The position numbers and the translations under genes are program-made. From the NCBI GenBank assembly GCA_030840525.1, contig JAVEEI010000131.1:526-64525 (forward strand): DNA of 64,000 nt, written 5' to 3'. Below, one piece after another: positions 4,846 to 27,947 of the stretch (positions are counted from its first letter, which is position 1; each line of letters begins with the position of its first letter). Origin of the DNA: Frankiaceae bacterium. GTDB taxonomy: Bacteria > Actinomycetota > Actinomycetes > JAFAQI01. The notes under the pieces are model-generated. The model was given only the letters and a program-made list of their open reading frames with translations. It did no database searches and had not been told where the DNA came from.

Positions 4846-6057
4846 GTGGATTTTGCTCTGTCCCCCGCCGCGCAGGACTATGCCAAGCGGCTCGAAGACT
4901 TCATGGACAGCCATGTGTATCCGGCGGAGAAGGTCTACGAGGAGCAGCGCCGCGCGCTGTTCGTTGACGGCCAACCGCACCGGGTGCCGGCGGTCGTCGA
5001 GGACCTGAAGGTCGAGGCGAAGAGCCGCGGGCTGTGGAACCTCTTCCTGCCGGACGTCTCCGGGCTGTCGAACGTCGACTACGCCCACCTGGCCGAGATC
5101 ATGGGCCGCTCCGCGCACCTGGCTCCGGAGGCGACCAACTGCGCCGCGCCGGACACCGGGAACATGGAAGTGCTGCACATGTTCGGCACGCCGGAACAGA
5201 AGGAGCGCTGGCTCCGGCCGCTCATGGACGGCGAGATCCGCTCCGCATTCGCGATGACCGAGCCGGCCGTGGCCTCCTCGGACGCGACGAACATCTCCAC
5301 CGAGATCACCCGCGACGGCGACCACTACGTGATCAACGGCCGCAAGTGGTGGATCAGCGGCGCGGCGGACGAGCGGTGCGCGTTCTTCATCCTCATGGGC
5401 AAGACCGACGCGGCCGCCCCGGCACACCGCCAGCAGTCGCAGATCCTCGTCCCGGTCGACACGCCCGGCGTCACCATCCTGCGCAACCTGCCGGTCTTCG
5501 GGTACGTCGACCAGCACGGTCACTGCGAGATCACGTTCGACGACGTGCGGGTGCCGGTGACCAACCTCATTGGCGAGGAGGGCGGCGGCTTCGCGATCGC
5601 GCAGGCGCGGCTCGGCCCCGGCCGGATCCACCACTGCATGCGGGCGATCGGCGTGGCCGAGCGCGCGCTCGAGCTGATGTGCCGCCGGGCGCTGTCGCGG
5701 ACCGCGTTCGGCCGCACCCTCGCCGAGCAAGGCGTCGTCCGCCAGCAGATCGCCGAGTCGCGGATGGCGATCGACCAGGCGCGCCTCTACACGCTCTACA
5801 CCGCTTGGCTGATCGACAGTGTCGGCGCGAAGGGCGCCCGCTCCGAGATCGCCGCGATCAAGGTGATCGCGCCGCGGGTGTGCCTCGACGTACTGGACCG
5901 GGCCATCCAGGTGCACGGTGCCGGCGGGGTGTCGGACGACTTCCCGCTCGCCAGCATGTGGGCGCACGCGCGCACCCTGCGCATCGCCGACGGCCCCGAC
6001 GAGGTGCACGTCCGGTCGGTGGCCCGCCAGGAGCTGGGCAAGTACGTCGACCGCTGA
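4846..6057 (+). CDS. Acyl-CoA dehydrogenase (FadE family)
   Basis: ACAD motifs ([23 protein letters not shown]-terminal [15 protein letters not shown]). GTG at 4846 is preceded by ggaggg. The 434-aa N-terminal extension in the ORF track is Arg/Gly-rich and antisense to real genes. Confidence 0.9.
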
Positions 6058-6092
6058 GCGGGTCCGTGTCCGTGTCCGCGGCGGCGTCGGCG

Positions 6093-7418
6093 TCAGGCAC
6101 GGCGCCACCGGCCTCGCTGCCGGGCCGCCGCCAGTCGCCGACCGGCGCCTCGTAACGCACCGGCGCCTCGTAGCTCACCGGCGCCTCGTAGCTGAGCGGC
6201 TAGCGCGGCCAGCGCGTGCCGCGCGGGGCTGGACGGCGCGGCCTCGACCAGCGTGCGGGCTCGCATGACGGCCCGGTCCACCGCGGGTTGGTCGAGCGGC
6301 ACGAACGCATCCGGGGTGACCGACGCGAACCGCCGGAGCGCCTCGCCGACCTGCGCGCACGGGTCGCCGGGCCCCACCGCGCGGGCGCGGACCCGGTTGA
6401 CCACGACGACCGGCTCGGCGCCCGGCGCCGCCTCCCGAAGCTCGGCGAGCCCGCGGACCAGCCGCTGGAGCCCGACCGGGTCGGCCGTCCCGACGGCGAC
6501 GACCGTGTCGGCAGCGCGCAGCGCGGTGAGGGTCGCGCCGTTGCGCTGCGGCGCGACAGTGTCGTAGGCCAGCTCCTCGTCCTCCTCCAGGCAGAAGCCG
6601 CAGTCGACGACGACGTACGCGCTTACCGTCCGCGCCAGCGCGAGGACGGCCGCCGCGGCGCTCGGCCGTACCTCGTCCCACCGGTCGGCCCGCGCGATGC
6701 CCGTGAGCACGCGCAGCCGGTCGCCGACCCCGCGCGCCAGCCCGGCGAGCGCGGCCCCGTCGAGCCGCCCGGCGTTGGCGAGCCGGCAGGCGGACGCGAA
6801 CCCGGCGATGTCGTCGAGCACGCCGAGAGCCGGCGCGATGGTCCCGCCGTACACGTCCGCATCGACGAGGACGACCTCGTCTCCGGCGGCGGCGAGCTCG
6901 GCGGCGAGACCGATCGCGACGGTGGTCCGGCCCGGCGCGCCGGCGGGGCCCCAGACGGCGATCAGCCGGCCGACACCCTCCGCGGGCTCGCCATCGTCGG
7001 GCTCACCCGGCGGCGCTTCGGACGGTGCGGTGGTGGCCGGCGCGTGCGCGGGACTCATCGCGTCGACGGCCGCGCGCATCCGTACGACGACTTCCTCGGT
7101 GGGCGCGTCGGCCCCGATCAGGTGCGTGACACCGAGGCGGCGCAGCGTCTGCTCCGCCTCCGCGTCGTCGGGTCGCACGAGCGCGAGGACGGCGACTCCC
7201 ATGAGGTCGAGCCGCGTGACGACGTCGCGATCGAGCCGGCGCAGGTCGGCCGACGCGACGACGGCGCTCGCGATCCCGGCACTCGCGGTCGCGAGCAGGT
7301 CGGCGACGTCGACGCAGCGGCGCACGACCGCGACGCCGTCGGCGCGGGACAGCCCGGCGACCAGGTCGGCCTCCCACCGCGGGTCGGCGATCGCGGTGAT
7401 GACGGACAGCGTCACGTG
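6093..7418 (-). CDS. Ssd/CpaE-like ParA/MinD-family ATPase (septum-site-determining-like)
   Basis: N-terminal receiver-like domain, then GRTTVAIGLAAELAAAGDEVVLVDADVYGG (deviant Walker A of the CpaE/Ssd subgroup). GTG at 7418 with ccggaggg upstream overlaps the cpaB-like stop. The C-terminus carries an (LRGAGx)3 repeat. Confidence 0.7.
   Translation of the reverse strand, partial: HVTLSVITAIADPRWEADLVAGLSRADGVAVVRRCVDVADLLATASAGIASAVVASADLRRLDRDVVTRLDLMGVAVLALVRPDDAEAEQTLRRLGVTHLIGADAPTEEVVVRMRAAVDAMSPAHAPATTAPSEAPPGEPDDGEPAEGVGRLIAVWGPAGAPGRTTVAIGLAAELAAAGDEVVLVDADVYGGTIAPALGVLDDIAGFASACRLANAGRLDGAALAGLARGVGDRLRVLTGIARADRWDEVRPSAAAAVLALARTVSAYVVVDCGFCLEEDEELAYDTVAPQRNGATLTALRAADTVVAVGTADPVGLQRLVRGLAELREAAPGAEPVVVVNRVRARAVGPGDPCAQVGEALRRFASVTPDAFVPLDQPAVDRAVMRARTLVEAAPSSPARHALAALAAQLRGAGELRGAGALRGAGRRLAAARQRGRWRRA
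6138..6191. repeat. 18-bp tandem repeat, 3 copies (caccggcgcctcgtagct), inside the 3' end of the ATPase gene
   Basis: Direct visual repeat. It encodes the LRGAGELRGAGALRGAG tail on the minus strand. Confidence 0.6.
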
Positions 7419-8089
7419 CCCCCTCCGGCACCGGCCGGAACAGCGACGAGGTCGACCGCACCGGACTCCGCGGCCCGCACGACGTCGGCGACGCGGTCGG
7501 CCGGTACGACGAGAACGACCGACAGCGCGGCGTCCGCGCCGAACGTCCGGCCACCGCTGGGGCGGGCCTGCACGACCGCGGCGGCGAGGACGAGCGACGG
7601 CGGAGCCGGGCCGCTGGTGCTTGACCCACCGGCGGATCGCGGGCTCAGGTAGACGTCGACGCGGTCGCCCGGCGCGAGATCGGGCGGCAGGTGCCCGGCC
7701 TGCACAGGCACGGTGACCAGCCGCGACGAGTCGGTCCGCGGCGACGCCGCGAGTGCGGCCGCGGGCAGCAACTCGCGCGCTGCGACGAACCGCACGACGA
7801 CGTATCCGGCCGGCGCGGCGCCGGTGAGATAGCCCGCGGCGGCCTCGTTGAGGCGGACCCGCACCGGTGTCAGGTCGCCGGCCGCCACCCGCTCGCCCGG
7901 CGCGAGGTCGTGGGCGGCGGCCCACACCGTCGTCTCCCGGCTCGCGGCGGCGAACAGCCGCGCGCCGCCGACCATCGAGCCGAGCAGCAGCACGATCCCG
8001 AGCACCGCGCGCGTGTCGAGCCACCGCCGCGACCCCAGTCGCAGCGCCGCCGGCGACGCCACGCCATCGGCTCTCCGCCCGTCGTCCAT
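7412..8089 (-). CDS. CpaB/RcpC-like SAF-domain protein
   Basis: N-terminal TM helix (LGIVLLLGSMVGGARLFAAA), SAF-like region and an Ala/Pro-rich C-terminus. ATG at 8089. Operon partner of the ATPase. Confidence 0.65.
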   Translation of the reverse strand: MDDGRRADGVASPAALRLGSRRWLDTRAVLGIVLLLGSMVGGARLFAAASRETTVWAAAHDLAPGERVAAGDLTPVRVRLNEAAAGYLTGAAPAGYVVVRFVAARELLPAAALAASPRTDSSRLVTVPVQAGHLPPDLAPGDRVDVYLSPRSAGGSSTSGPAPPSLVLAAAVVQARPSGGRTFGADAALSVVLVVPADRVADVVRAAESGAVDLVAVPAGAGGGT

Positions 8090-8132
8090 TCGCTACCCTC
8101 CCGTCCGTTCGATCGTCTCCCGAGCAGGACTG

Positions 8133-8152
8133 CCTACCATTGGGTAGGTACG
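8133..8152. promoter_or_regulatory. Palindrome cctacc-attg-ggtagg in the divergent promoter region between the cpaB-like and HTH genes
   Basis: 6-bp inverted arms seen directly. The position suits an operator for the adjacent HTH protein. Confidence 0.25.
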
Positions 8153-8252
8153 CGGAGCAATTCGCGTCGTCGCGGTTGGGGACGGCGCGCCCGCAGAACG
8201 CGACTGTGGACGACGCGACCGCGGCCGGCGAGACCTGCCAGACTCTGGGCCG

Positions 8253-8504
8253 ATGGACCGACCGCGGTTTCTCCAACTCGCCGACGTGGCGGAGATCCTC
8301 AATATCTCCGCGGCGCAGGCGTACGCGCTGGTGCGCAGCGGTGAGCTGCCCGCCATCAAGGTGGGCGGCCGTGGGCAGTGGCGGGTGGAGCACGAACAAC
8401 TCGAGCAGTACATCGCCCGGGCATACGCCGAGACGAAACGGTTCGTCGAAGAACATCCGTTCGGCCGCACGGATGCGGAAGTCGGCGCGGCCGACCTCGA
8501 CTGA
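8253..8504 (+). CDS. Helix-turn-helix DNA-binding protein (excisionase/MerR-like family)
   Basis: LADVAEILNISAAQAYALVRSGELPAIKVGGRGQWRV is a classic excisionase-family HTH. 83 aa. Confidence 0.75.
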   Translation: MDRPRFLQLADVAEILNISAAQAYALVRSGELPAIKVGGRGQWRVEHEQLEQYIARAYAETKRFVEEHPFGRTDAEVGAADLD

Positions 8505-8535
8505 GCGCCGGGTGAGCCAGGTCAGGTGAGCCCGG

Positions 8536-9071
8536 TCAGGTGAGCCGTAGGGAGGCGACGGCGGCGAGCGGCAGGCAGCGTTCGGCGCGCGCGGACCGCG
8601 GCTCGGGGCCGATGTCGACGAAGTCGGCACCGACGCGGCTCACCGTCCCGCGGAAGTCGGTGCCGTTGCGCAGGCGCACGTGTACGACGCGGCGGTCCCG
8701 TGCGGTCGCGCGGAGGACGGAACCGACTCCCAGCCGTTGATCCACCGGCGAGACTGCCGCCGGATCCACAGCGCGGGGTGGCAGCCCCTCTACCCACATG
8801 GTCGCCGCCGCGAGCACGAGAAGCTCGCCCGCTGCGCCATCGTCGATGAGCAGCCAGTCCGGTCCCACGCGGTGCACCCGGCCACGGACCGGGCTGGACC
8901 CCTCGAGGCCCAGCGTGAGGTCGCGGCCGGCGGCGGCGCGCAGCCGGTCGACGAGGTGCAGGCGGGCGAGCTCCCGGCGGGTCCGGTCGGCCACCTCCCC
9001 GGCGAGCTCGCGCCGCTCCTCGGCGTCGAGGTCGGCTTCCAGCTCGTCGATCAGCCGCTCCCACTGCATCC
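8536..9071 (-). CDS. Conserved hypothetical protein
   Basis: ATG (MQWERLIDELEADLDAEERREL...) at 9071; 178 aa; no family recognised. Confidence 0.5.
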
Positions 9072-9185
9072 CCAATGTCGAGCTCCCGTCACGGTATCCA
9101 CAAGCAACCGAAGGCAATTGACCGCAAACGCGCGAATCGGATACAACCGGTACGACGCCAACATACGGAGAGGAAGGAATCTCGC

Positions 9186-9959
9186 GTGATTTCGGTCCGT
9201 CGCCCGCCAGGACGCGGCCGGGCGCTGCTCGTCTTGCTCGTGGCGGCGGTGGCCGGGGTGGTGCTGGCCGGCGTCCGCGGGCAGGTCGGCAGGACGCCGG
9301 GCATCGCGCCCGACGCTGCGACTCTTGTCGTTGCGGCGCAGTGGGCGGTGTGGCTGCTGACGTCTTACGCGGTCGCCGTCGCTGGGTGCGTCGCGGCGCT
9401 CACCGCCCTGGGCCGACCAAGTAGAGCTCGTGCCCTGCTCTGGCTGCTGCCCGCGGCCGGGCGTCCCGCTCTTGCCGCGGCACTCGGAGTCGTGCTGACG
9501 GCCAGCCCGGCCGTCGCGAGCCCGTCGCCATCGCCAGCCGCACCGCCGAGTACGACTACCGCCGACCCGTTCGACTGGACCGCGCCGACGGAGGCCGCGG
9601 CCGGCATCGCCGCCCGCATCTCCCCGGCGTCGCCGCCGGCCCAGCAGGTCGCTCGCCGGGCGCCGCCGCGCCAGCCCACGGTGGGCCCGGCGCCACGCCC
9701 GATCCGCCGGCCCCTGCCCCGCACGGTGCGCGTCCGCCCCGGCGACTGCCTCTGGTCGCTGGCCGCGCGCGATCTTGCCGCCCGCCGATCCGGTCCTCGT
9801 CCGGCCGACATCGCGGTGGCCTGGCACCGCTGGTACGCCGACAACCGGCCGGTCATCGGCCCGGACCCGGGTCTGCTGCATCCCGGCGAGGTGCTGCGCG
9901 TGCCGCTGCTCAACCCGCCCCTCCACCCGTCGACCCGCATCACCAGGAGACCGTCATGA
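9186..9959 (+). CDS. LysM domain-containing membrane protein
   Basis: GTG at 9186 preceded by ggagaggaagg. TM segments, a Pro/Ala-rich linker and a C-terminal LysM-like segment (VRPGDCLWSLAARDL...LLHPGEVLRVP). Confidence 0.65.
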   Translation: MISVRRPPGRGRALLVLLVAAVAGVVLAGVRGQVGRTPGIAPDAATLVVAAQWAVWLLTSYAVAVAGCVAALTALGRPSRARALLWLLPAAGRPALAAALGVVLTASPAVASPSPSPAAPPSTTTADPFDWTAPTEAAAGIAARISPASPPAQQVARRAPPRQPTVGPAPRPIRRPLPRTVRVRPGDCLWSLAARDLAARRSGPRPADIAVAWHRWYADNRPVIGPDPGLLHPGEVLRVPLLNPPLHPSTRITRRPS

Positions 9960-10537
9960 CCGCCGGACCGCCCACCGACCGCACTCTGCGCCTGCTCCCC
10001 GCGCCACCCACCGACCCGCCCTACGACGACGAGCTGGGTGCCGCCGCGCTCGTGGTGGACGGCGCGCTCGCGCTCGCGTTCCCGGCGCCGGCATCGTCGG
10101 TGCCGCTGCGCCTGGCTCCCCCGGCACTCGAAGAGGAGATGGAGGACCGGGCGACCCCGCGGACATTGCTGCCCGACCCTGTCCCGCTCGCCCACCGCTT
10201 CGCGCAAGCAGTCGTCGAGATCCTCGCCGGCGACCGCCCGGCCGCCCAGCTCAGCCGCTACGCGACCCTCGACGTGCTCGACCAGCTCGAGCGTTCCGTA
10301 CGGCGTGGACCGGCCCGCGCGGTCGCGATGGCCCGGCGACCGGTCGGTGGCGCGGCGGGGTCAGCGGGCGCGCTGGCCGCCCGGCCACGAGTGACCTCGG
10401 TGCACGTGAGCGAGCCGGCCGACGGGGTGGCCGAAGCATGCGCCGTGATCACCGCGGGGCCGCGCCGGCGCGCTCTCGCGTTCCGGCTCGAAGGCCTCGA
10501 CGGCCGGTGGCAGTGCACCGCACTGCACCCGGGCTGA
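9956..10537 (+). CDS. Conserved actinobacterial Ala/Arg/Pro-rich protein (Rv3235-like)
   Basis: ATGA overlap with the LysM gene. It sits next to secA on the opposite strand, as mycobacterial Rv3235 does. Confidence 0.5.
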   Translation: MTAGPPTDRTLRLLPAPPTDPPYDDELGAAALVVDGALALAFPAPASSVPLRLAPPALEEEMEDRATPRTLLPDPVPLAHRFAQAVVEILAGDRPAAQLSRYATLDVLDQLERSVRRGPARAVAMARRPVGGAAGSAGALAARPRVTSVHVSEPADGVAEACAVITAGPRRRALAFRLEGLDGRWQCTALHPG

Positions 10538-10559
10538 CATGCGGTGCCGAGGAGGCGTC

Positions 10560-13610
<3,051 letters not shown>

Positions 13611-15602: not shown

Positions 15603-16403
15603 ATGGAGCGCGGGTGCCGCCGCAGGGGTCGCCGGAATGGCGGGCCGGGCGGGCCGGTTGGCCCCATCGTGACGTCGTCTCGCGGGCCGGTCCGCGTTGT
15701 ACCGACACTCCCCTGGTCGGCAACGTCGCGGTGGCGGCCACGGCCGTCCTCGCTGCCCGTACTGCTTGTCGGCCTATGGATCTTCGGTACCGGCGAGGCG
15801 CTGCTGGTCGCATCCCGGTGGGGGAACACGCCGTGGACGGTGCTGGCCGAAGGGGTCAGCCGGCACAGCCCGCTGTCGATCGGCGGGGCCACGCTCGTGA
15901 TCAGCGCCGTGGTGCTGCTCGGCTGGATTCCGCTGCGCGAGCGACCGGGGCTGGGGACCGTGGCGAACGCCGTGGTCATCGCGGTCGCGATCGACGTCGT
16001 ACTCGACGTGCTGCCGCGCCAGCACCACCCGCTCGGGCAGGCCGGCTTCGTCGTAGCCGGCATCGCCGCGATCGGGATCGGCAGCGCGCTCTACCTCACC
16101 GCCGCGCTCGGGCCGGGGCCGCGCGACGGCTGGATGACCGGCCTGGCCCGCCGGTTCGACCTGCCGCTCGCCTGGGTACGGCTTGGCCTCGAACTCACGG
16201 TTATGGTCGCCGGGCTGGTGCTCGGCGGGCGGGCCGGCGTCGGTACGGCGGCGTTCGCGCTGACCATCGGGTACGCCGTGACCACGACGATGTGGCTGCT
16301 CGACGCAGCGGCAGGGACTCCGGGGCGCCGACGACGGCGACCGGCGGGCGAGGCAGCCAGCGAGACGGCCGGAGCCACCGCGAGCTCGGTAACCGCTCGC
16401 TAG
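15603..16403 (+). CDS. YczE/YitT-like integral membrane protein
   Basis: Four or more hydrophobic helices (LPVLLVGLWIFGTGEALLV; ATLVISAVVLLGWIPL; GIAAIGIGSALYLTAALG). The ATG at 15603 is the first in-frame ATG downstream of the repeat, and the start is uncertain. Confidence 0.5.
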   Translation: MERGCRRRGRRNGGPGGPVGPIVTSSRGPVRVVPTLPWSATSRWRPRPSSLPVLLVGLWIFGTGEALLVASRWGNTPWTVLAEGVSRHSPLSIGGATLVISAVVLLGWIPLRERPGLGTVANAVVIAVAIDVVLDVLPRQHHPLGQAGFVVAGIAAIGIGSALYLTAALGPGPRDGWMTGLARRFDLPLAWVRLGLELTVMVAGLVLGGRAGVGTAAFALTIGYAVTTTMWLLDAAAGTPGRRRRRPAGEAASETAGATASSVTAR

Positions 16404-17119
16404 GTGATCTCGAGCAGCTTCTCGCGTACCGCGTAGACGACGGCTTCCATCCGCGAGTGCAGCTGGAGCTTCTCCAGGATGTTGCGGATGTGGTTCTTGA
16501 CCGTGTTCTCGCTGATGAACAACTGCTTGGCGATGTCGCGGTTGTTGAGGCCTTTGGCGACCAGCCGCAGCACCTCCATCTCGCGGTCGGTGAGCCGCGG
16601 CGCCGGCACCTGCTGCCGCTCGTCGCCGCGCTTGATCATCGTCGCGAACTCGTTGAGCAGCTTCGAGGCCATCGACGGCGAGATGAGCGACTGCCCGCCG
16701 TGCACGGCCCGGATCGCCGCGGCGACCTCTTCGACCGGGATCTCCTTGAGCAGGTAGCCCATCGCGCCGGCCTTGATCGCGTCGTAGAGGTCGGCCTCCT
16801 CGTCGCTGATCGTGAGCATGATGATCTTGACGCTCGGGACCGCGTCCTTGATCGCCGTGCAGGCGTCGATGCCGCCCCGCTTCGGCATCCGCACGTCCAT
16901 CAGCACGATGTCGGGGGTCGTCTCGACCGTCTTCTGCACCGCTTCGGCCCCGTCTTCGGCCTCGCCGACGACGTCGATGTCGGGCTCCTGCTCGAGGACC
17001 ATCTCCAGGCCGCGCCGGAACAGCGCGTGGTCGTCGACGACGAGCACGCGGATCGGCTCGCCGCTCACAGCGGCGCTGGGCGCGACGCTTTCGGGCGTCT
17101 CGGTCACTCGTTCTCCCAC
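16400..17119 (-). CDS. Two-component response regulator, NarL/LuxR family (REC + LuxR HTH)
   Basis: IRVLVVDDHALFRRGLEMVL receiver domain with D...MDVRMP, and a C-terminal LuxR HTH (LTDREMEVLRLVAKGLNNRDIAKQLFISENTVKNHIRNIL). GTG start; an internal start 5-19 codons downstream is possible. Confidence 0.85.
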   Translation of the reverse strand: MGERVTETPESVAPSAAVSGEPIRVLVVDDHALFRRGLEMVLEQEPDIDVVGEAEDGAEAVQKTVETTPDIVLMDVRMPKRGGIDACTAIKDAVPSVKIIMLTISDEEADLYDAIKAGAMGYLLKEIPVEEVAAAIRAVHGGQSLISPSMASKLLNEFATMIKRGDERQQVPAPRLTDREMEVLRLVAKGLNNRDIAKQLFISENTVKNHIRNILEKLQLHSRMEAVVYAVREKLLEIT

Positions 17120-17833: not shown

Positions 17834-18574
17834 TCAGCACCGTAATCCCCACCCGCGCTGTTGTGCAGCCGGACTGCCCAACCCCGCCGCCGCAACGCCC
17901 GGCGCGTGCGCCCGCCGGGTCGTCGCCGCGATGGTCGCGGCGGCCAGCACCGTCGCCGACGCCGCGCGCAGCACCCGCGCCGACTCGGCGAGACTGACCC
18001 CCGTCGTGACGAGGTCGTCGACGAGCACGACCGTCCGACCGGCCACCAGCGGGCCGGCGCCGCGGCGCACGGCGAGGGCGCCCACCACGTTGGCCACCCG
18101 GGCGTGCGCGCCGAGACCGGCCGAGTCGGCGACCGCGCGCACGTGCCGCAGCGCGCGCACGAGCTGAACCCGGTGGCCCAGCGCCCGCAGCTCCCGCACC
18201 GCCCGGGCCGCGATCTCGACGACGACGTCGGCGCCGCGCCGGCGGCACTGCCGCCCCGACGACGGCACCGGCACGACGACGACGGCCCCGGCGCCCGGAC
18301 CCCGCGCCAGCAGCAGCGAACGGGCCAAGGCCCCGCCGAGCGGGCGAGCGAGGCCGGAGACGCCGTGCTCCTTGTAACCGATGAGCAGGCCGCGCACCGG
18401 TCCGCCGTACGCCGCGACCGTCGCAACCGGAGGCAGGCCGGCGGGGCACGGGTCGGGCCGAGTCCACCGGGCCGGGCCGGACAGCGCGCGCAGGCAGCCC
18501 GGGCAGCCCGGGCCGGCCGGGTCTCCGCAGCCGGCGCAACGAGCCGGCAGCACCAGGTCGAGCAGTGCGCGCAT
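17834..18574 (-). CDS. ComF family phosphoribosyltransferase-domain protein
   Basis: N-terminal CxxC...CxxC zinc finger (PARCAGCGDPAGPGCPGC) and a C-terminal PRTase motif (VVLVDDLVTTGVSL). Confidence 0.75.
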   Translation of the reverse strand: MRALLDLVLPARCAGCGDPAGPGCPGCLRALSGPARWTRPDPCPAGLPPVATVAAYGGPVRGLLIGYKEHGVSGLARPLGGALARSLLLARGPGAGAVVVVPVPSSGRQCRRRGADVVVEIAARAVRELRALGHRVQLVRALRHVRAVADSAGLGAHARVANVVGALAVRRGAGPLVAGRTVVLVDDLVTTGVSLAESARVLRAASATVLAAATIAATTRRAHAPGVAAAGLGSPAAQQRGWGLRC

Positions 18575-18662
18575 GGCTACGACGATGCCGCCGCAGCCCG
18601 CGGACCACCGCCGAAAGACACATACCTGTGGACGCAGCGGCGTACGACCGCGACCTGTGGAC

Positions 18663-22675: not shown

Positions 22676-23806
22676 GTGACAGGGTGGAGCGCGCCCGAGG
22701 GCGCCGGACCGGTCCCGCCGGCCGCACCCGGCGAGACGGCCCCGAGCCCGCCGTACGTCCCCCCGCCCGGTACGGCGTACGGCGCACCGCCGTACGGCTA
22801 CGGCGCGACGGCGTACGGGTACGGGTACGGCGCGCCGCCGCGGCCGGAGGCACCGCGGCCGGGCATCGTCCCGCTGCGGCCGCTCGGTGTCGGCGAGGTG
22901 CTCGACGGGTCGTTCACGGCCATCCGCACCGCGCCGCTCGCGTCGCTGGGCTACGCGGCGATCGTCATGCTCGTCTACCAGGCGATCTTCCTGCTGCTCA
23001 ACTACACCGTCCTGCGGCCGGCCACGACGACGAACGTCGACGGGTCGACCGTCAGCGACGCGGGCGACGCGGCTGCGCGCGTCGGCGCGGTCTACATCGC
23101 GACGGCCGTCTTCACATCCATCGCGTTGCTCGTGTTGACCGGCGTCATGGCTGCCGTCGTCGGCGAGCGGATCATGGGCCGCCGGGTCACGTGGACGGTC
23201 GCGCGCGACCGGTTGCGTCCGGTCGCGTGGCCGTTGTTGCGCGTCGTCGGCGCGGTGACCTTCATCGTCGCCGGCACGGTCGCCGTCGCGTTGGGTCCCG
23301 GCATCGCGCTCTCGGTCACCGGCTCCAACAGCGGTGGCCCGGCTCTGTTGGCCATCGGCTTCCTGCTGCTCGTGGTGCCGGTGATCTACGCATGGACGAC
23401 GCTGTCGCTCGCGCCCGCGGCGGTCGTTCTCGAACGGCGAGGTGCGCGCGCGGCGCTGCGCCGGTCGCGCAAGCTGGCGCATGGCGGGTGGTGGCGGGTC
23501 TTCTGGATCAGCCTGTTGGCGTGGGTCACCGCGTCGATCGTCGGAACCATACTTTCGTTGCCGTTCCTCATCTTCGGCGGCGGCCTGAGCGACATCTTCG
23601 CCGGCCGGTCGGACAACCTGTCCTTCGTCGTCCTGCTGATGCGAGCGCTCGGCGGGTTCGTCGCCGGGACGCTGGCGCGGCCGTTCCAGGGCGGTGTCTC
23701 GGCGCTGCTCTACATCGACCGCCGGATGCGCGCGGAGGGCCTCGACATGGCGTTGCAAGCCGCCAACGCCGAGGCGTCGACGGCGAACGGCGCGGCCGGC
23801 GCGTGA
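22676..23806 (+). CDS. Conserved polytopic membrane protein (first gene of the MoxR/DUF58 cluster)
   Basis: GTG preceded by gagaggagg. Low-complexity Pro/Gly/Tyr N-terminus (YGAPPYGYGATAYGYGYGAPP), then at least six TM helices. Confidence 0.6.
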   Translation: MTGWSAPEGAGPVPPAAPGETAPSPPYVPPPGTAYGAPPYGYGATAYGYGYGAPPRPEAPRPGIVPLRPLGVGEVLDGSFTAIRTAPLASLGYAAIVMLVYQAIFLLLNYTVLRPATTTNVDGSTVSDAGDAAARVGAVYIATAVFTSIALLVLTGVMAAVVGERIMGRRVTWTVARDRLRPVAWPLLRVVGAVTFIVAGTVAVALGPGIALSVTGSNSGGPALLAIGFLLLVVPVIYAWTTLSLAPAAVVLERRGARAALRRSRKLAHGGWWRVFWISLLAWVTASIVGTILSLPFLIFGGGLSDIFAGRSDNLSFVVLLMRALGGFVAGTLARPFQGGVSALLYIDRRMRAEGLDMALQAANAEASTANGAAGA

Positions 23807-24450
23807 CGGCGTACCCGATCCTCGCCGGCCTCGGCATGGACCCGGTCAACCGCGACGACGCACGCCGCCGCGCGCGCGAGGAGCTGTCGCACGCGGTCTA
23901 CCACCGCTACGACGACTCGTGGCCGGTGCGCGCGGTGAAGGCCGTCGAGCACGCACTCGATAACGCGTTCAACGCGGCCGCCTCGCACTCGCCGGGCGGC
24001 GGCGCCGGCGCGATCGTCTTCCTGGCTTTGCTGGTCGCCCTCGTCGCGTTCGCGCGCTGGCGGCTCGGCCCGACGTCGCGGCGCGCGCACGTGTCGCTCG
24101 ACGTGCTCGCCGACACGACCATGACCGCGGCCGAGCACCGCCGGCGTGCCGACGCAGCGGCCGGCGACGGCGACTGGAAGACGGCCGTCGTCGAGCGGAT
24201 GCGCGCGCTCGCCCGCGGCCTCGAAGAGCGCGCGGTCCTCGACCCGCGGCCGGGCCGCACCGCCGACGAGCTCGCAGCCGAAGGAGGCCGGGTGCTGCCG
24301 GCCGCGCGCGAGTCGCTCGCGACCGCGGCCGCGACGTTCGACGCCGTCGTGTACGGCGACCGGGCGGCGAGCGCCGACGACCACGACGCGGTACGTCGCG
24401 GCGACGAGGCCGCGGCCGCCGCTCGGCCGGTCGAGCTGAGCACCGTATGA
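23803..24450 (+). CDS. DUF4129-like protein
   Basis: GTGA overlap with the upstream gene. Position and size match the DUF4129 partner in conserved MoxR clusters. One TM helix. Confidence 0.5.
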   Translation: MTAYPILAGLGMDPVNRDDARRRAREELSHAVYHRYDDSWPVRAVKAVEHALDNAFNAAASHSPGGGAGAIVFLALLVALVAFARWRLGPTSRRAHVSLDVLADTTMTAAEHRRRADAAAGDGDWKTAVVERMRALARGLEERAVLDPRPGRTADELAAEGGRVLPAARESLATAAATFDAVVYGDRAASADDHDAVRRGDEAAAAARPVELSTV

Positions 24451-25664
24451 GCCCAGGTATGAGCACAGCTATGAGCACAGCCGTCGCCGAGTCCCCGGCG
24501 GAGACCCGACCAGCGGGTCCGCCGTACGACGAACCGCCCGCCCCGGACTTCGCCGGGTGGCTGCGCCGGGCGTGGCGGCCGGTGCTGCTCGTCGCTCTCG
24601 TCGTCGCGACCGCGGTCGGGCTGGCGGTCGTCGGGTCGGCGCCGGTCGCGCGGCCGCTCGACCCCACCGACGCGTCGCCCGACGGCGCGCGCGCAATCGT
24701 CGCGTTGCTGCGCCAGCAAGGTGTCGAGGTACAGACGGCCGACAGCGTCGACGCGCTCACCTCGTCGGGTGACGCGACCGTCGTCGTCTCGGTACCCGAC
24801 GTCCTCGGGCCGAGCCAGCTCGCCAGCCTGTCCGCGACCGACAGCGACCTCGTCCTCATCGCGCCCGGCGACGACGCGCTGTCGATGCTCGGCCTTCCGG
24901 TGCACGAGGCCGGCGACGTCGCCGCGGACAAGGTCGGGCCGCACTGCGACCTGCCGGCGGCGACGTCGGCCGGCACGATCACCGTCGACGGGCCGGTCTA
25001 CACGGCGAGCGGCGACGTCGCGCAGAGCTGCTACCCGGTCGCGGGCGAGCACGCCGTCGTCGTCACGAAAGGGCCGGCCGGCAACAAGGTCACCGTCGTC
25101 GGGTCGCGGGCGGTGTTCGCCAACCGCACCCTCGGCGACGACGGCAACGCGGCGCTCGCCCTCGGCCTGCTCTCCGACCACCCGCGCCTCGCCTGGCTGA
25201 TCCCCGTCGCGCCGACGGAGGCGACCGACACCCAGCGGCACGGCCTGTTCGAGCTGCTGCCGGGCCGGCTCGGATGGGCGTTGCTCGAGGTCGGCGTCGC
25301 GTTGCTGCTGTTCGCGGTGAGCCGGGCCCGCCGGCTCGGACCGCTCGTCGCCGAGCCGCTGCCCGTCGTCGTACGTGCCACCGAGACGGTCGAGGGCCGC
25401 GCCCGGCTGCTTCGCGGCGCGCGGGCCCGCGGGTCCGGCGCCGACGCGCTGCGCGCCGCGGCCCGGCGCCGGCTCGGGACGAGGCTCGGGCTCGGCGCCG
25501 CGCCCGACCGGGCCGCGCTCGTCGACCGCGTCGTCGCGCGCACCGGCCGCGGCGCCGACGACGTGTCCGATTTGCTGTACGGTTCCTCCCCGGCAGACGA
25601 CCGCGGCCTGGTCGCGCTCGCGACCGCACTGGACCGGCTCGAAGAGGAGATGCGCCGACAGTGA
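24447..25664 (+). CDS. DUF4350-like protein
   Basis: ATGA overlap. N-terminal TM helix, a periplasmic-type domain and a second TM helix near the C-terminus. Conserved position upstream of MoxR. Confidence 0.55.
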   Translation: MSPGMSTAMSTAVAESPAETRPAGPPYDEPPAPDFAGWLRRAWRPVLLVALVVATAVGLAVVGSAPVARPLDPTDASPDGARAIVALLRQQGVEVQTADSVDALTSSGDATVVVSVPDVLGPSQLASLSATDSDLVLIAPGDDALSMLGLPVHEAGDVAADKVGPHCDLPAATSAGTITVDGPVYTASGDVAQSCYPVAGEHAVVVTKGPAGNKVTVVGSRAVFANRTLGDDGNAALALGLLSDHPRLAWLIPVAPTEATDTQRHGLFELLPGRLGWALLEVGVALLLFAVSRARRLGPLVAEPLPVVVRATETVEGRARLLRGARARGSGADALRAAARRRLGTRLGLGAAPDRAALVDRVVARTGRGADDVSDLLYGSSPADDRGLVALATALDRLEEEMRRQ

Positions 25665-26650
25665 CAACAGCTCGCCGTACCGGTTCTCGTGCCGTCACCG
25701 AGGACGACGCGCGCGCCGCGCTGACCGCGGTCCGGACCGAGGTCGCGAAAGCGGTCGTCGGGCAGGACGCCGTCGTCACCGGCCTCGTCATCGCGCTGCT
25801 CTGCCGCGGCCACGTACTGCTCGAAGGCGTGCCGGGTGTCGCGAAAACACTGCTGATCCGCGCCCTCGCGGCGTCGCTCTCGCTCGACAACAAGCGGGTG
25901 CAGTTCACCCCCGACCTGATGCCCGGCGACGTGACGGGATCGCTGGTGTACGACGCACGCACCGCGCGGTTCGAGTTCCACGACGGCCCGGTATTCACCA
26001 ACCTGTTGCTCGCAGACGAGATCAACCGCACCCCGCCGAAGACGCAGGCCGCCCTGCTCGAAGCGATGGAGGAGCGGCAGGTCACCGTCGAGGGCGCCGC
26101 GCGGCCGCTGCCCGAGCCGTTCCTCGTCGCGGCGACCCAGAACCCGGTCGAGTACGAGGGGACCTACCGGCTGCCCGAGGCGCAGCTCGACCGGTTCCTG
26201 ATGAAGCTCGTCGTGCCGCTGCCCGACCGCGACAGCGAGATCGACATCCTCACCCGCCACCACGACGGCTTCGACCCGCGCGACCTCGCCGGCGCCGGCG
26301 TGCGGCCGGTGGCCGGCCGCCCCGAGCTCGACGCCGGCCGCGCCGCCGCCAACGCCGTCACGGTCACCCCTGAGGTCCTCGGGTACGTCGTCGACCTGTG
26401 CCGGGCGACGCGGTCGGCGCCGTCGCTGTCGCTCGGGGTCTCGCCGCGCGGTGCGACGTACCTGCTCGCCGCCGCGAAGGCGTGGGCGTGGCTGTCCGGC
26501 CGCGACTTCCTCACCCCGGACGACGTGAAGGCGCTGGCCCGGCCGGTGCTGCGGCACCGGGTGCAGCTGCGGCCCGAAGCCGAGCTCGAAGGCGCGTCGA
26601 CCGACGGCGTCCTCGACGGGGTGCTGGCCGCGGTCCCGGTACCGCGCTGA
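25661..26650 (+). CDS. MoxR-family AAA+ ATPase
   Basis: Walker A (GVPGVAKT), Walker B (LLADEINR), sensor region and a C-terminal lid typical of MoxR. GTGA overlap. Confidence 0.9.
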   Translation: MTTARRTGSRAVTEDDARAALTAVRTEVAKAVVGQDAVVTGLVIALLCRGHVLLEGVPGVAKTLLIRALAASLSLDNKRVQFTPDLMPGDVTGSLVYDARTARFEFHDGPVFTNLLLADEINRTPPKTQAALLEAMEERQVTVEGAARPLPEPFLVAATQNPVEYEGTYRLPEAQLDRFLMKLVVPLPDRDSEIDILTRHHDGFDPRDLAGAGVRPVAGRPELDAGRAAANAVTVTPEVLGYVVDLCRATRSAPSLSLGVSPRGATYLLAAAKAWAWLSGRDFLTPDDVKALARPVLRHRVQLRPEAELEGASTDGVLDGVLAAVPVPR

Positions 26651-26651
26651 C

Positions 26652-27947
26652 GTGGCCCTCACCGGCCGGGTCGGACTGGTCGCGCTCGTCGCGACGCTGC
26701 TCGTCTGGGCCGTGCCCGCCGACGGCTACACGGTCGCGTGGGTCGCGGCCGCTCTCGTCGCCGGCATCGTCGCCGACCTCGTGCTCGCGGCGTCGCCGCG
26801 CGCGCTGACGGTGCAGCGCGCCCCGGAGCTGACGACCCGGCTCGGCGAGACCGTCGACTCGCCGCTCGTCGTGCACAACCACGGCCGCCGCCGCGCCCGC
26901 GGGAGGCTGCGCGACGGCTGGCCGCCGAGCGCGTCCGCCCGGCCGCGCGCCGCCGCCCTCGACATCGGCCCGCTCGACCGGCAGCGCGTCGTCATCCGGG
27001 TGTCGCCGCAACGCCGCGGCGAGACGGCGAGCGAGAAGGTGACGGTGCGCCTGGTCGGGCCGCTGGGGCTGGCGGCGCGGCAGCGCACCCGTAGCTGCCC
27101 CGGACAGATCCGGGTGCTGCCCGCGTTCACCAGCCGCAAGCTGCTGCCGGAGAAGCTCACCCGGCTGCGCCAGCTCGAAGGCGAGGTGGTCGCGCCGGTC
27201 CGCGGCCAGGGCACCGAGTTCGACTCGCTGCGGGAGTACGTCGTCGGCGACGACCCGCGGTCGATCGACTGGCGGGCGACCGCGCGGCGGGCCGACGTCG
27301 TCGTCCGCACCTGGCGGCCGGAACGCGACCGGCACGTCGTCCTGGTGCTCGACACCGGGCGCACGTCGGCCGCGCGCGTCGCGGGGGCGCCGCGGCTGGA
27401 GACGGCCCTCGACGCCGCGCTGCTGATGACCGCGCTCGCGCGTCATGCGGGTGACCGTGTGACCGTGCTCGCGCACGACGTGCGGCTCCGCGCGGCCGTC
27501 GACGCGGGGCGCGGCGGCGGCGCGCTGGCCGCGGTCGTCGCGGCGACGACCGGCCTGCAGCCTGCGCTGGTCGAGACCGACATGGCCGCGGTCGTCACGC
27601 AGGTGTTGCGCCGGGTGCGCCAGCGTGCGCTGGTCGTCCTGCTCACCGCGATGGACCCCGCGCCGGTGTCGGAAGGCCTGCTGCCCGCGGTCCCGAGCCT
27701 GGTACGCCGGCACACCGTGCTCGTCGCGTCGATCGCCGACCCCGCGGTCGACGCGATGGCCGCCGGTCGCGGCGACGCGGAGGCCGTCTACGCCGCGGCC
27801 GCGGCCGAGGCGACGCGGACCGAGCGCGCCGATGTCGCCGCGGCGCTGCGGCGGCGCGGCGTCGACGTACTCGAAGCTCCACCCGCGACGTTCGCGTCTA
27901 AGCTCGCCGACGCTTACTTGGATTTGAAGGCCTCCGGGCTGCTCTGA
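26652..27947 (+). CDS. DUF58 (VWA-like) domain protein
   Basis: Immediately follows MoxR. N-terminal TM hairpin, then DSLREYVVGDDPRSIDWRATARR...VVLVLDTGRTSAA (degenerate MIDAS-like). Confidence 0.8.
   Translation: MALTGRVGLVALVATLLVWAVPADGYTVAWVAAALVAGIVADLVLAASPRALTVQRAPELTTRLGETVDSPLVVHNHGRRRARGRLRDGWPPSASARPRAAALDIGPLDRQRVVIRVSPQRRGETASEKVTVRLVGPLGLAARQRTRSCPGQIRVLPAFTSRKLLPEKLTRLRQLEGEVVAPVRGQGTEFDSLREYVVGDDPRSIDWRATARRADVVVRTWRPERDRHVVLVLDTGRTSAARVAGAPRLETALDAALLMTALARHAGDRVTVLAHDVRLRAAVDAGRGGGALAAVVAATTGLQPALVETDMAAVVTQVLRRVRQRALVVLLTAMDPAPVSEGLLPAVPSLVRRHTVLVASIADPAVDAMAAGRGDAEAVYAAAAAEATRTERADVAAALRRRGVDVLEAPPATFASKLADAYLDLKASGLL

Follow-up and report, generated by a model that had tools for sequence, protein, structure and literature searches.

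In a 64-kb window of DNA from a Frankiaceae bacterium (73.6% GC; by the window we mean this whole stretch), three adjacent genes encode a small helix-turn-helix (HTH) protein of the HTH_17 family, a SAF-type membrane protein resembling RcpC/CpaB, and an ATPase-like protein with a MinD/ParA fold. In our judgement there is about an even chance that this trio belongs to the actinobacterial Tad/Com DNA-uptake regulon as an accessory and regulatory module, and is not an ATP-driven positioning system of the MinD, ParA or Ssd type. We came to this reading because a promoter box, GTCCACAG, is shared between the trio and genes of DNA uptake, and because of what genetics in Micrococcus luteus has revealed about the SAF and HTH genes. 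The module is conserved across Actinomycetota, and the window holds its Frankiales-type copy; the closest named relatives of the window are metagenome-assembled genomes (MAGs) of Frankiaceae and Frankiales.

How DNA uptake is turned on in Actinomycetota is still an open question. The HTH_17/SAF/CpaE-like module, the only one that has been implicated genetically, is shown here to be widespread across orders, and GTCCACAG together with the genes that carry it offers candidates for an operator and for its regulon, both of them open to direct tests. The module is already known from one genetic study, which was the only paper on these genes found in our literature search (PMC8467076), and its parts come from known superfamilies. 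Three things appear to be unreported in the literature searched: the loss of lysines from the P-loop throughout the family, how widely and strictly the synteny is kept, and the sharing of GTCCACAG with DNA-uptake genes.

The gene trio and its counterpart in Micrococcus luteus

The ATPase-like gene (6093-7415, minus strand, 440 amino acids) and the SAF gene (7412-8089, minus strand, 225 amino acids) face the HTH_17 gene (8253-8504, plus strand, 83 amino acids; excisionase/MerR-like) across a divergent promoter region of 163 bp (8090-8252). The SAF stop and the ATPase-like start share four nucleotides (GTGA, 7412-7415), and a stop/start overlap was seen in 72 of 80 related loci (TGATG in 45, NTGA in 27), which argues that the two proteins are translationally coupled and made as a stoichiometric pair. 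The overlap, the divergent HTH gene and the 163-bp gap are all as an earlier note on this DNA had described them. The note had also found the genes to stand apart from any tad genes in the 64 kb, in agreement with our Pfam scan of the ~46 predicted window proteins, in which no T2SSE/CpaF, T2SSF/TadBC, Flp, TadE or secretin family was detected.

The 80 loci were collected by scanning genomes with an ATPase-like protein alignment and cover Frankia, Modestobacter, Blastococcus, Actinopolymorpha, Jiangellaceae and many Frankiales and Mycobacteriales MAGs, that is, several orders. As far as the contigs reach, the order secA–DUF6459–LysM-like–X179–HTH–SAF–ATPase–(acyl-CoA dehydrogenase)–WS/DGAT was kept in 80/80 loci, and the HTH gene was divergent from the SAF gene in all of them. 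More distant SAF relatives, at 37-43% identity, share this neighbourhood. The position beside secA, which the earlier note had suggested looking for in other Actinomycetota, was strongly borne out. No tadA/B/C gene (T2SSE, T2SSF) was detected within ±10 kb in 85+ related contexts. Because the synteny holds in 80/80 loci, the trio belongs to the core genome in many actinobacterial orders and is no stray piece of a tad island.

A screen for changed comEA/EC expression in M. luteus had led to a 550-bp region with Mlut_14660 (HTH_17) and Mlut_14650 (SAF, RcpC/CpaB-like), the latter in an operon with Mlut_14640 (TadZ/CpaE-like), together named 'cluster 13' (PMC8467076). Point mutations in the HTH gene made the comEA/EC promoter more active and the gene resisted deletion; a G27D substitution in the SAF protein or a clean deletion of its gene lowered transformation 10^4 to 10^5-fold, and in competence medium the expression of the SAF operon ranked among the highest (PMC8467076). 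Transformation of M. luteus depends on tad pili (PMC8467076, PMC12849477), and Gram-positive tad loci are without rcpC/cpaB (PMC8467076, citing Tomich 2007). A 2026 M. luteus study from the same laboratory states that the upstream signals and the regulatory cascade "remain to be identified" (PMC12849477).

The divergent HTH_17/SAF/CpaE-like arrangement was also reported in Geodermatophilus, Rothia, Jonesia and Cellulomonas (PMC8467076). Among our loci, those of Geodermatophilaceae (Modestobacter, Blastococcus) carry exactly the M. luteus-type trio, a divergent HTH_17 gene and an operon of SAF and CpaE-like genes, and from this and the reported Geodermatophilus synteny we infer that the window module is the orthologue of Mlut_14660/50/40. 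As in the window, the HTH_17 gene of cluster 13 faces an operon in which the SAF gene precedes the CpaE-like gene, outside the tad locus; the M. luteus operon differs in having a third gene, Mlut_14630, where an acyl-CoA dehydrogenase gene is found here.

The promoter box and the genes that share it

Read on the SAF strand (minus), the box GTCCACAG lies at 8204-8211, 99 nt upstream of the SAF start, with a degenerate inverted partner, GCCCGCAG, beside it at 8189-8196. The hexamer TCCACA was present in 62 of 74 HTH–SAF gaps, where 2.3 were expected. Exact GTCCACAG was found in 57% of 82 regions upstream of the HTH gene, rising to 91% when up to one mismatch was allowed; for random 150-nt segments the figures were 1.4% and 12%, respectively. 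An inverted copy often lies 6-12 nt away in these gaps. Over the 74 trio gaps the box was directed toward the SAF gene in 38, toward the HTH gene in 21 and both ways in 14.

On the HTH side, ~29 nt from the box, we observed the pattern TGnCAGACT/CACACT, which in the window is TGcCAGACT (8236-8244, plus strand). AGTCTG occurred in 34 of the 74 gaps against 0.7 expected, and a CAGACT/CACACT-type hexamer was enriched upstream of the HTH start. From its sequence and place TGcCAGACT is probably an extended -10 element, and because it ends 8 nt before the ATG the HTH mRNA would probably be leaderless or have a very short leader. An E. coli-type sigma-70 promoter scan was blank, which is uninformative for 74% GC DNA, and Rfam gave no RNA element at E≤1 over 5800-10600. 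A conserved RNA hairpin is a less likely explanation of the GTCCACA...TGTGGAC repeats, because the stem is conserved and not covarying, most loci are without the partner arm and the box occurs as single or direct copies at other promoters; the long overlapping 5' untranslated regions of M. luteus (PMC8467076) would be compatible with it.

The earlier note had singled out a different element of the same gap, the palindrome CCTACC-ATTG-GGTAGG. It is present at 8133-8148, but it is neither conserved nor beyond chance. None of 73 other loci had it, and even the closest relative (L081, with a SAF protein 95% identical) differs by one mismatch; a 6-bp inverted repeat with a spacer of up to 12 nt arose in 61% of composition-matched resamples, and with a spacer of exactly 4 in 10%. 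We have therefore discarded it as an operator.

The box was also found upstream of a comF-like gene of the window (17834-18574, minus strand; Pribosyltran, with ComF and GntX as the best NCBIfam matches, below cutoff). Here two direct GTCCACAGG boxes (GTCCACAG(G)) stand 29 nt apart at 18626-18662 on the minus strand, 45-90 nt upstream of the gene and directly after the lpqB stop. With at most one mismatch, GTCCACAG was present upstream of ComF in 12 of 14 loci and upstream of X179 in 41% of 78 loci (background 12%), and at eight control genes its frequency was at background. Over the whole window, sites with at most one mismatch were under-represented (31 observed, ~58 in Markov shuffles), and since such sites are rare the intergenic pairs stand out. 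A box-like TGTGGAT is seen at 9096-9102, in the divergent promoter of X179 and the LysM-like gene (9183-9959). At 629-664, in the 3' end of a DUF6912 gene, two further boxes with one mismatch each, TTGTGGAC and CTGTGGAT, stand 28 nt apart; this region shows no conservation in L081.

When metagenome contigs were scanned without bias for pairs of boxes 8-24 nt apart, the result was at least 80 loci, at least 40 of them with a GC content of 0.62 or more; these matches are a sample and not a census. Among the matches listed, a double box preceded a genuine ssd gene (324 bits with TIGR03815) with tadA behind it (L132:1403-1439) and a DUF4244 Flp-like pilin gene (L154:1085-1121), the latter downstream of two tadB/tadC-looking genes, one with only a weak T2SSF match. 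It also preceded yraN (UPF0102) followed by yifB/comM in at least three loci (L088, L098, L161), paralogues of the single-stranded DNA-binding protein gene (ssb) in at least three (L092, L136, L157) and dnaB in at least two (L164, L115), one of which is divergent from a MatE gene. We estimate the chance of three independent matches to one promoter class among the ~27 intergenic matches listed at ~5e-8 for a 4000-gene genome. At 11 of 11 targets (ten of the metagenome matches listed and the comF-like gene of the window), GTCCACAG was on the coding strand of the downstream gene. Because this directional box is shared with tad/flp, pilin, comF, comM and ssb genes, we think that the operon of the SAF and MinD-like proteins most likely belongs to a DNA-uptake regulon.

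A related element, CTGTGGAC-N11-CTGTGGAC, was observed between the genes of an FHA-FtsK/SpoIIIE protein (EccC-like, 1412 amino acids) and WXG100 proteins in about ten Geodermatophilaceae loci (L049:17719-17746; also L040, L051, L053, L056, L059, L069, L073, L078 and L080). The sequence hints that a type VII-like locus shares the CTGTGGAC/GTCCACAG element. The co-regulation of competence and the type VI secretion system in Vibrio offers a parallel.

The product of the HTH gene matches PF12728 with 51.9 bits (cutoff 27) and TIGR01764 with 36.4 bits (cutoff 28.8), and 7928 of 7932 scored candidates were related to it at E≤1e-5. It is the most conserved member of the trio, with identities across orders in the 80 loci of 57-82%, compared with 51-60% for the ATPase-like and 32-52% for the SAF protein. 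Like the excisionase and BldC-type HTH_17 proteins it is a small, single-domain, MerR-like winged HTH protein; unlike them, it is encoded in the core genome, with no mobile element, integrase or att site nearby. With no integrase or mobile element among its neighbours and with synteny in 80/80 loci, it lacks the association that marks a true excisionase.

In the interpretation that we favour, GTCCACAG would be bound by the HTH_17 protein, at the divergent promoter of its own gene as well as upstream of comF, yraN-comM, the ssb paralogues, ssd-tadA and the flp-like genes. We consider it probable that the module has a part in controlling this regulon. We infer its role as the binder of GTCCACAG, and likewise all of the protein-protein contacts proposed below. 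A bolder form of this interpretation, which is possible but to which we give somewhat less than even credence, would put natural competence in Actinomycetota under the HTH_17 protein as its master regulator, with GTCCACAG as a 'com box' and the SAF/MinD-like pair feeding back the state of the machine. Its regulon would then comprise the Tad/Flp operon (ssd-tadA...), the Flp-like pilin gene, comF, yraN-comM(-dprA), an SsbB-like single-stranded DNA-binding protein and the SAF/MinD-like pair itself, and in some lineages the WXG100/EccC type VII-like locus. Through the pair, the state of the envelope machine would be passed on to the regulator, much as FleN acts on FleQ.

The membrane protein and its lysine-less partner

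The AlphaFold2 (AF2) model of the SAF protein, with a predicted local distance difference test score (pLDDT) of 84.9, consists of a long helix (residues 22-49) followed by two beta domains. The helix, at 7943-8026 on the minus strand, is predicted to span the membrane from the model and its composition, with the arginine-rich N-terminal tail placing the N-terminus inside. The protein is accordingly modelled as bitopic, with a cytoplasmic tail, one transmembrane anchor and two beta domains of the SAF/beta-clip kind (SAF-like D1 and D2), which is the plan of RcpC/CpaB. In a Foldseek search of the PDB the only significant matches were both chains of Pseudomonas aeruginosa RcpC (9gzr; E 2e-8, 24-26% identity over ~190 aligned columns), and the lower-ranked matches (FlgA, NeuB, the SAF domain of antifreeze protein, generic SAF domains) had E>0.06. 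The family cutoffs were not reached: Pfam RcpC (PF16976) scored 24.0 against a cutoff of 28.8, the ChapFlgA and SAF models were also slightly below theirs, and TIGR03177 scored 32 against 71. Several close homologues have precomputed matches to PF16976 or PF08666.

Besides these scores and its place outside a tad locus, the SAF protein differs from RcpC/CpaB in a conserved R..W.D.R motif of the cytoplasmic tail. This tail is the best-conserved stretch of the protein (R17 and W23 invariant, D25 and R27 at least 90%, in 46 sequences down to 36% identity), and such conservation suggests a likely docking site for a cytoplasmic partner. RcpC forms a dodecameric ring anchored by a single transmembrane helix per subunit, and its C-terminal hairpin joins the inner-membrane Tad platform to the secretin (PMC12307814). 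The SAF protein stops ~10 residues past D2. Because it has 225 residues against the 303 of RcpC, there would be no room for the hairpin, which, to judge from length alone, is probably missing. Its loss would fit a host without an outer-membrane secretin, the host being presumably monoderm.

We propose that the SAF protein builds an extracytoplasmic scaffold or ring and that its cytoplasmic tail (R17, W23, D25, R27) docks the lysine-less MinD-like protein. Such an RcpC-like ring could supply the CpaB that is lacking in Gram-positive tad loci.

The same evidence would also suit a purely structural role, in which the SAF protein is the missing CpaB/RcpC ring of a Tad machine encoded elsewhere, the ATPase-like protein a second TadZ-type hub and the HTH protein a local regulator, with some other protein binding GTCCACAG. 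RcpC is, after all, the sole significant fold match of the SAF model, cpaB is absent from Gram-positive tad loci (PMC8467076), knockout of the SAF gene in M. luteus abolishes transformation that depends on tad pili, and GTCCACAG points toward the SAF operon just as it does toward ssd-tadA and the flp-like genes. We nevertheless regard this explanation as doubtful. True actinobacterial tad operons encode a TadZ of their own (the Ssd of L132 and of Mycobacterium tuberculosis), and the trio sits in a housekeeping neighbourhood, never beside tadA/B/C in the 85+ contexts. The HTH protein, moreover, is the best conserved of the three, is apparently essential in M. luteus and alters comEA/EC promoter activity when mutated, which is more than a local role would lead one to expect. 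The earlier note had considered that the genes could simply be displaced tad genes; for the cpaB-like gene this idea survives in part, as it may well serve a tad system elsewhere, but true actinobacterial tad operons have a TadZ already.

The AF2 model of the ATPase-like protein (pLDDT 70.7) shows a (beta-alpha)5 domain (residues 1-120), a disordered linker (122-147) and a MinD/ParA fold (150-412), in other words a receiver joined to a MinD/FleN/FlhG/ParA-type domain. CbiA and ParA-type P-loop models matched the 440-residue open reading frame slightly above cutoff. The earlier note had called the protein a deviant-Walker-A ATPase and had held that absence of the Walker lysine would refute its reading. 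The deviant motif xKGGxxK[ST], with its signature and canonical lysines, was not found. The P-loop is GPAGAPGRTT (residues 156-165, G156 to T165; 6921-6950, minus strand), with Arg163 at the position of the Walker lysine and the lysine of the KGG signature gone; in a profile alignment to GGKGGVGKT of FleN, the signature lysine corresponds to Ala/Thr and the canonical lysine of GK[ST] to Arg163. Both lysines are missing from virtually every member of the family. Among 14 relatives the motif VWGPxGAPGR[ST]T was invariant, the lysine-less P-loop was retained in members just 43-55% identical, and GPxG[AS]PGR[ST][TS] was found in 138 of the 140 sequences with a recognised P-loop among 150 representatives of 50%-identity clusters.

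In an alignment of 109 sequences (40-53% identity to the window protein), R163 was 98% conserved, and the switch-I DxD (D185, D187), the Walker B aspartate (D271), an RRCxD motif and an RW.E motif were conserved as well. From the conservation in this alignment it follows that the aspartates for magnesium and water activation have been kept while both lysines have been replaced. Arg in place of the P-loop Lys suggests that ATP hydrolysis has been lost, and the loss of both lysines argues against ATP-dependent dimerisation and hydrolysis. The MinD-like member is a naturally lysine-less P-loop protein and most likely acts as a switch or adaptor, not as a motor. In the mechanism that we favour it would be a nucleotide-binding, non-hydrolysing adaptor or switch, which we liken to TadZ and FleN.

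The N-terminal domain (residues 1-120; 7056-7415, minus strand) bears the family hallmark RRCxD (R32, R33, C34, D36). We call it a pseudo-receiver because fewer than 90% of the 109 diverse sequences keep Asp57, the acidic pocket is not complete and the alignments show no equivalent of Lys109; a true phosphorylatable receiver was rejected on the same grounds, although Asp57 is invariant in close relatives. At the other end, many family members have a basic C-terminal tail. The (LRGAGx)3 sequence noted earlier is indeed encoded by an 18-bp tandem repeat (2.9 copies, 6141-6193, minus strand; Tandem Repeats Finder) in the tail, but that tail is not conserved: the triple repeat is missing from every homologue and the closest relatives, L081 and L082, have one unit. 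A functional motif was therefore dismissed, and the repeat reads as a recent private expansion.

As to the family of the protein, the earlier note had likened it to Ssd and TadZ. The two-domain architecture, an atypical N-terminal receiver fused to a MinD-like domain, is borne out by the model and is shared with TadZ/CpaE and Ssd, for which an adaptor or localisation role, and not that of a motor, is presumed. Membership is another matter. TIGR03815 (Ssd) gave 23.2 bits against a cutoff of 154.45, where the Ssd of L132 as positive control gave 324.4, and neither a match to PF16968 (TadZ_N) nor a TadZ/CpaE protein as the closest structural neighbour was obtained. The gene also stands beside secA with a CpaB-like partner and not upstream of tadA, and its P-loop, GPxGAPGR[ST]T, is entirely without lysine. 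The place typical of ssd, at the head of a tadA-tadB-tadC-flp cluster, was not seen in the window or within ±10 kb in the 85+ related contexts. Because of the TIGR03815 score in particular, we conclude that the family resembles TadZ/CpaE in architecture yet is separate from both TadZ and Ssd, and that the labels 'Ssd/septum site-determining' and 'chromosome partitioning' attached to it have no support in the sequence. The further premise that Ssd of M. tuberculosis also lies near secA proved wrong, since the gene of Ssd, Rv3660c, is tadZ and stands first in a tad/flp cluster of seven genes, Rv3654c-Rv3660c (PMC9531140), and secA1 is indexed in the literature as Rv3240c.

FleN works as an anti-activator by binding a transcription factor (entry titles 7ejw and 8p53), and by analogy the window protein might be linked to the HTH_17 protein. 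FleN, FlhG and MinD differ from the window protein in having the deviant Walker A KGGxGK[ST], in hydrolysing ATP and in lacking both an N-terminal receiver domain and a CpaB-like partner.

These results bear directly on the proposal of the earlier note, a stand-alone ParA/MinD/Ssd-type, ATP-driven positioning or septum-site system with the SAF protein as its membrane partner. The conserved DxD and Walker B aspartates, the basic C-terminal tail of many members and the absence of tad genes from the window would be in keeping with it. However, the P-loop lysines that MinD and ParA need for the ATP-sandwich dimer and for hydrolysis are absent family-wide, the Ssd equivalog score falls far short of its cutoff, Ssd is itself the TadZ of a tad operon, and the promoter box is common to tad, com and ssb genes. 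The phenotypes in M. luteus concern transformation, and a division defect was not reported (PMC8467076). With the missing lysines the proposal is already largely refuted, and we consider it very improbable.

A role in envelope or cell-wall signalling was weighed as well. The SAF protein would sense peptidoglycan or glycan and the pseudo-ATPase would relay the signal to an essential HTH_17 protein in charge of a broad stress and DNA-metabolism regulon (ssb, dnaB, MatE, WXG100/EccC), so that the effects on competence would be indirect. SAF and beta-clip domains are general carbohydrate-binding folds, with FlgA, NeuB and the antifreeze-protein SAF domain among the lower-ranked fold matches; a LysM-like membrane protein and a LytR_C protein are among the neighbours of the trio; boxes occur at dnaB and MatE and between the EccC-like and WXG100 genes of Geodermatophilaceae; and the HTH gene is apparently essential in M. 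luteus even though pili and competence are dispensable. We find this improbable all the same, as the two-domain match is specific to RcpC and not to generic SAF proteins, the boxes at ssd-tadA, the Flp-like pilin gene, comF and yraN-comM mark the classical DNA-uptake set, and the transformation defect of the SAF mutants (10^4 to 10^5-fold) is very strong.

Several points weigh against the accessory Tad/Com module that we favour. A regulator other than HTH_17 could bind GTCCACAG, and about half of the intergenic high-GC metagenome matches listed adjoin genes that have no evident tie to DNA uptake (MazG, TilS, HAD, NUDIX, YgjP-like). Genome coverage is the 64-kb window, so the content of tad, comEA and comEC genes was judged from the window alone. 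The putative orthology with Mlut_14640-14660 stands on the synteny statement for Geodermatophilus and on the Geodermatophilaceae loci, and in cluster 13 a PAS histidine kinase gene adjoins the HTH gene where X179 is found here. The AF2 model of the ATPase-like protein is moderately confident, with a pLDDT below 50 at the P-loop, and the Arg that replaces the P-loop Lys suggests a loss of hydrolysis but falls short of proving it. Finally, the GTCCACAG boxes are irregularly spaced (16-32 nt, direct and inverted), as one would not usually expect of a dimeric regulator. Xis and BldC bind single sites or direct-repeat arrays, as monomers or head-to-tail multimers, and with array binding of this kind irregular spacing would be tolerable. 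To our knowledge, GTCCACAG is unrelated to any BldC or Xis site.

Neighbouring genes and other features of the window

The X179 gene (8536-9069, minus strand, 177 amino acids), convergent with the HTH gene, is syntenic in ~78 loci and its product had no match in Pfam, NCBIfam or PADLOC. A 14-bp tandem repeat, GGTGAGCCAGGTCA, of 2.6 copies lies at 8511-8546 between the convergent HTH and X179 stops and is partly retained in L081. On the other side of the trio, a hexamer repeat (GTCCGT, 2.8 copies, 6062-6078) lies in the 35 bp that separate the convergent genes of the acyl-CoA dehydrogenase and the ATPase-like protein. An anti-phage defence system was considered for the locus and set aside, as PADLOC yielded only a weak, generic mad1 HTH match.

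Farther away, a LuxR-type response regulator gene (16400-17107, minus strand) lies between hpf and secA, with no cognate kinase gene adjacent; it is also present in L081 and L083. Downstream of mtrA, a five-gene cluster at 22676-27947 encodes a UPF0259-like membrane protein, a DUF4129 protein, a DUF4350 protein, a MoxR AAA_3 ATPase and a DUF58 protein, and is followed by SpoIIM-like and RDD genes. The region 35340-42750 encodes a 1071-residue family-2 glycosyltransferase with an adjoining DUF5719 protein and a 702-residue apolipoprotein-like coiled-coil protein.

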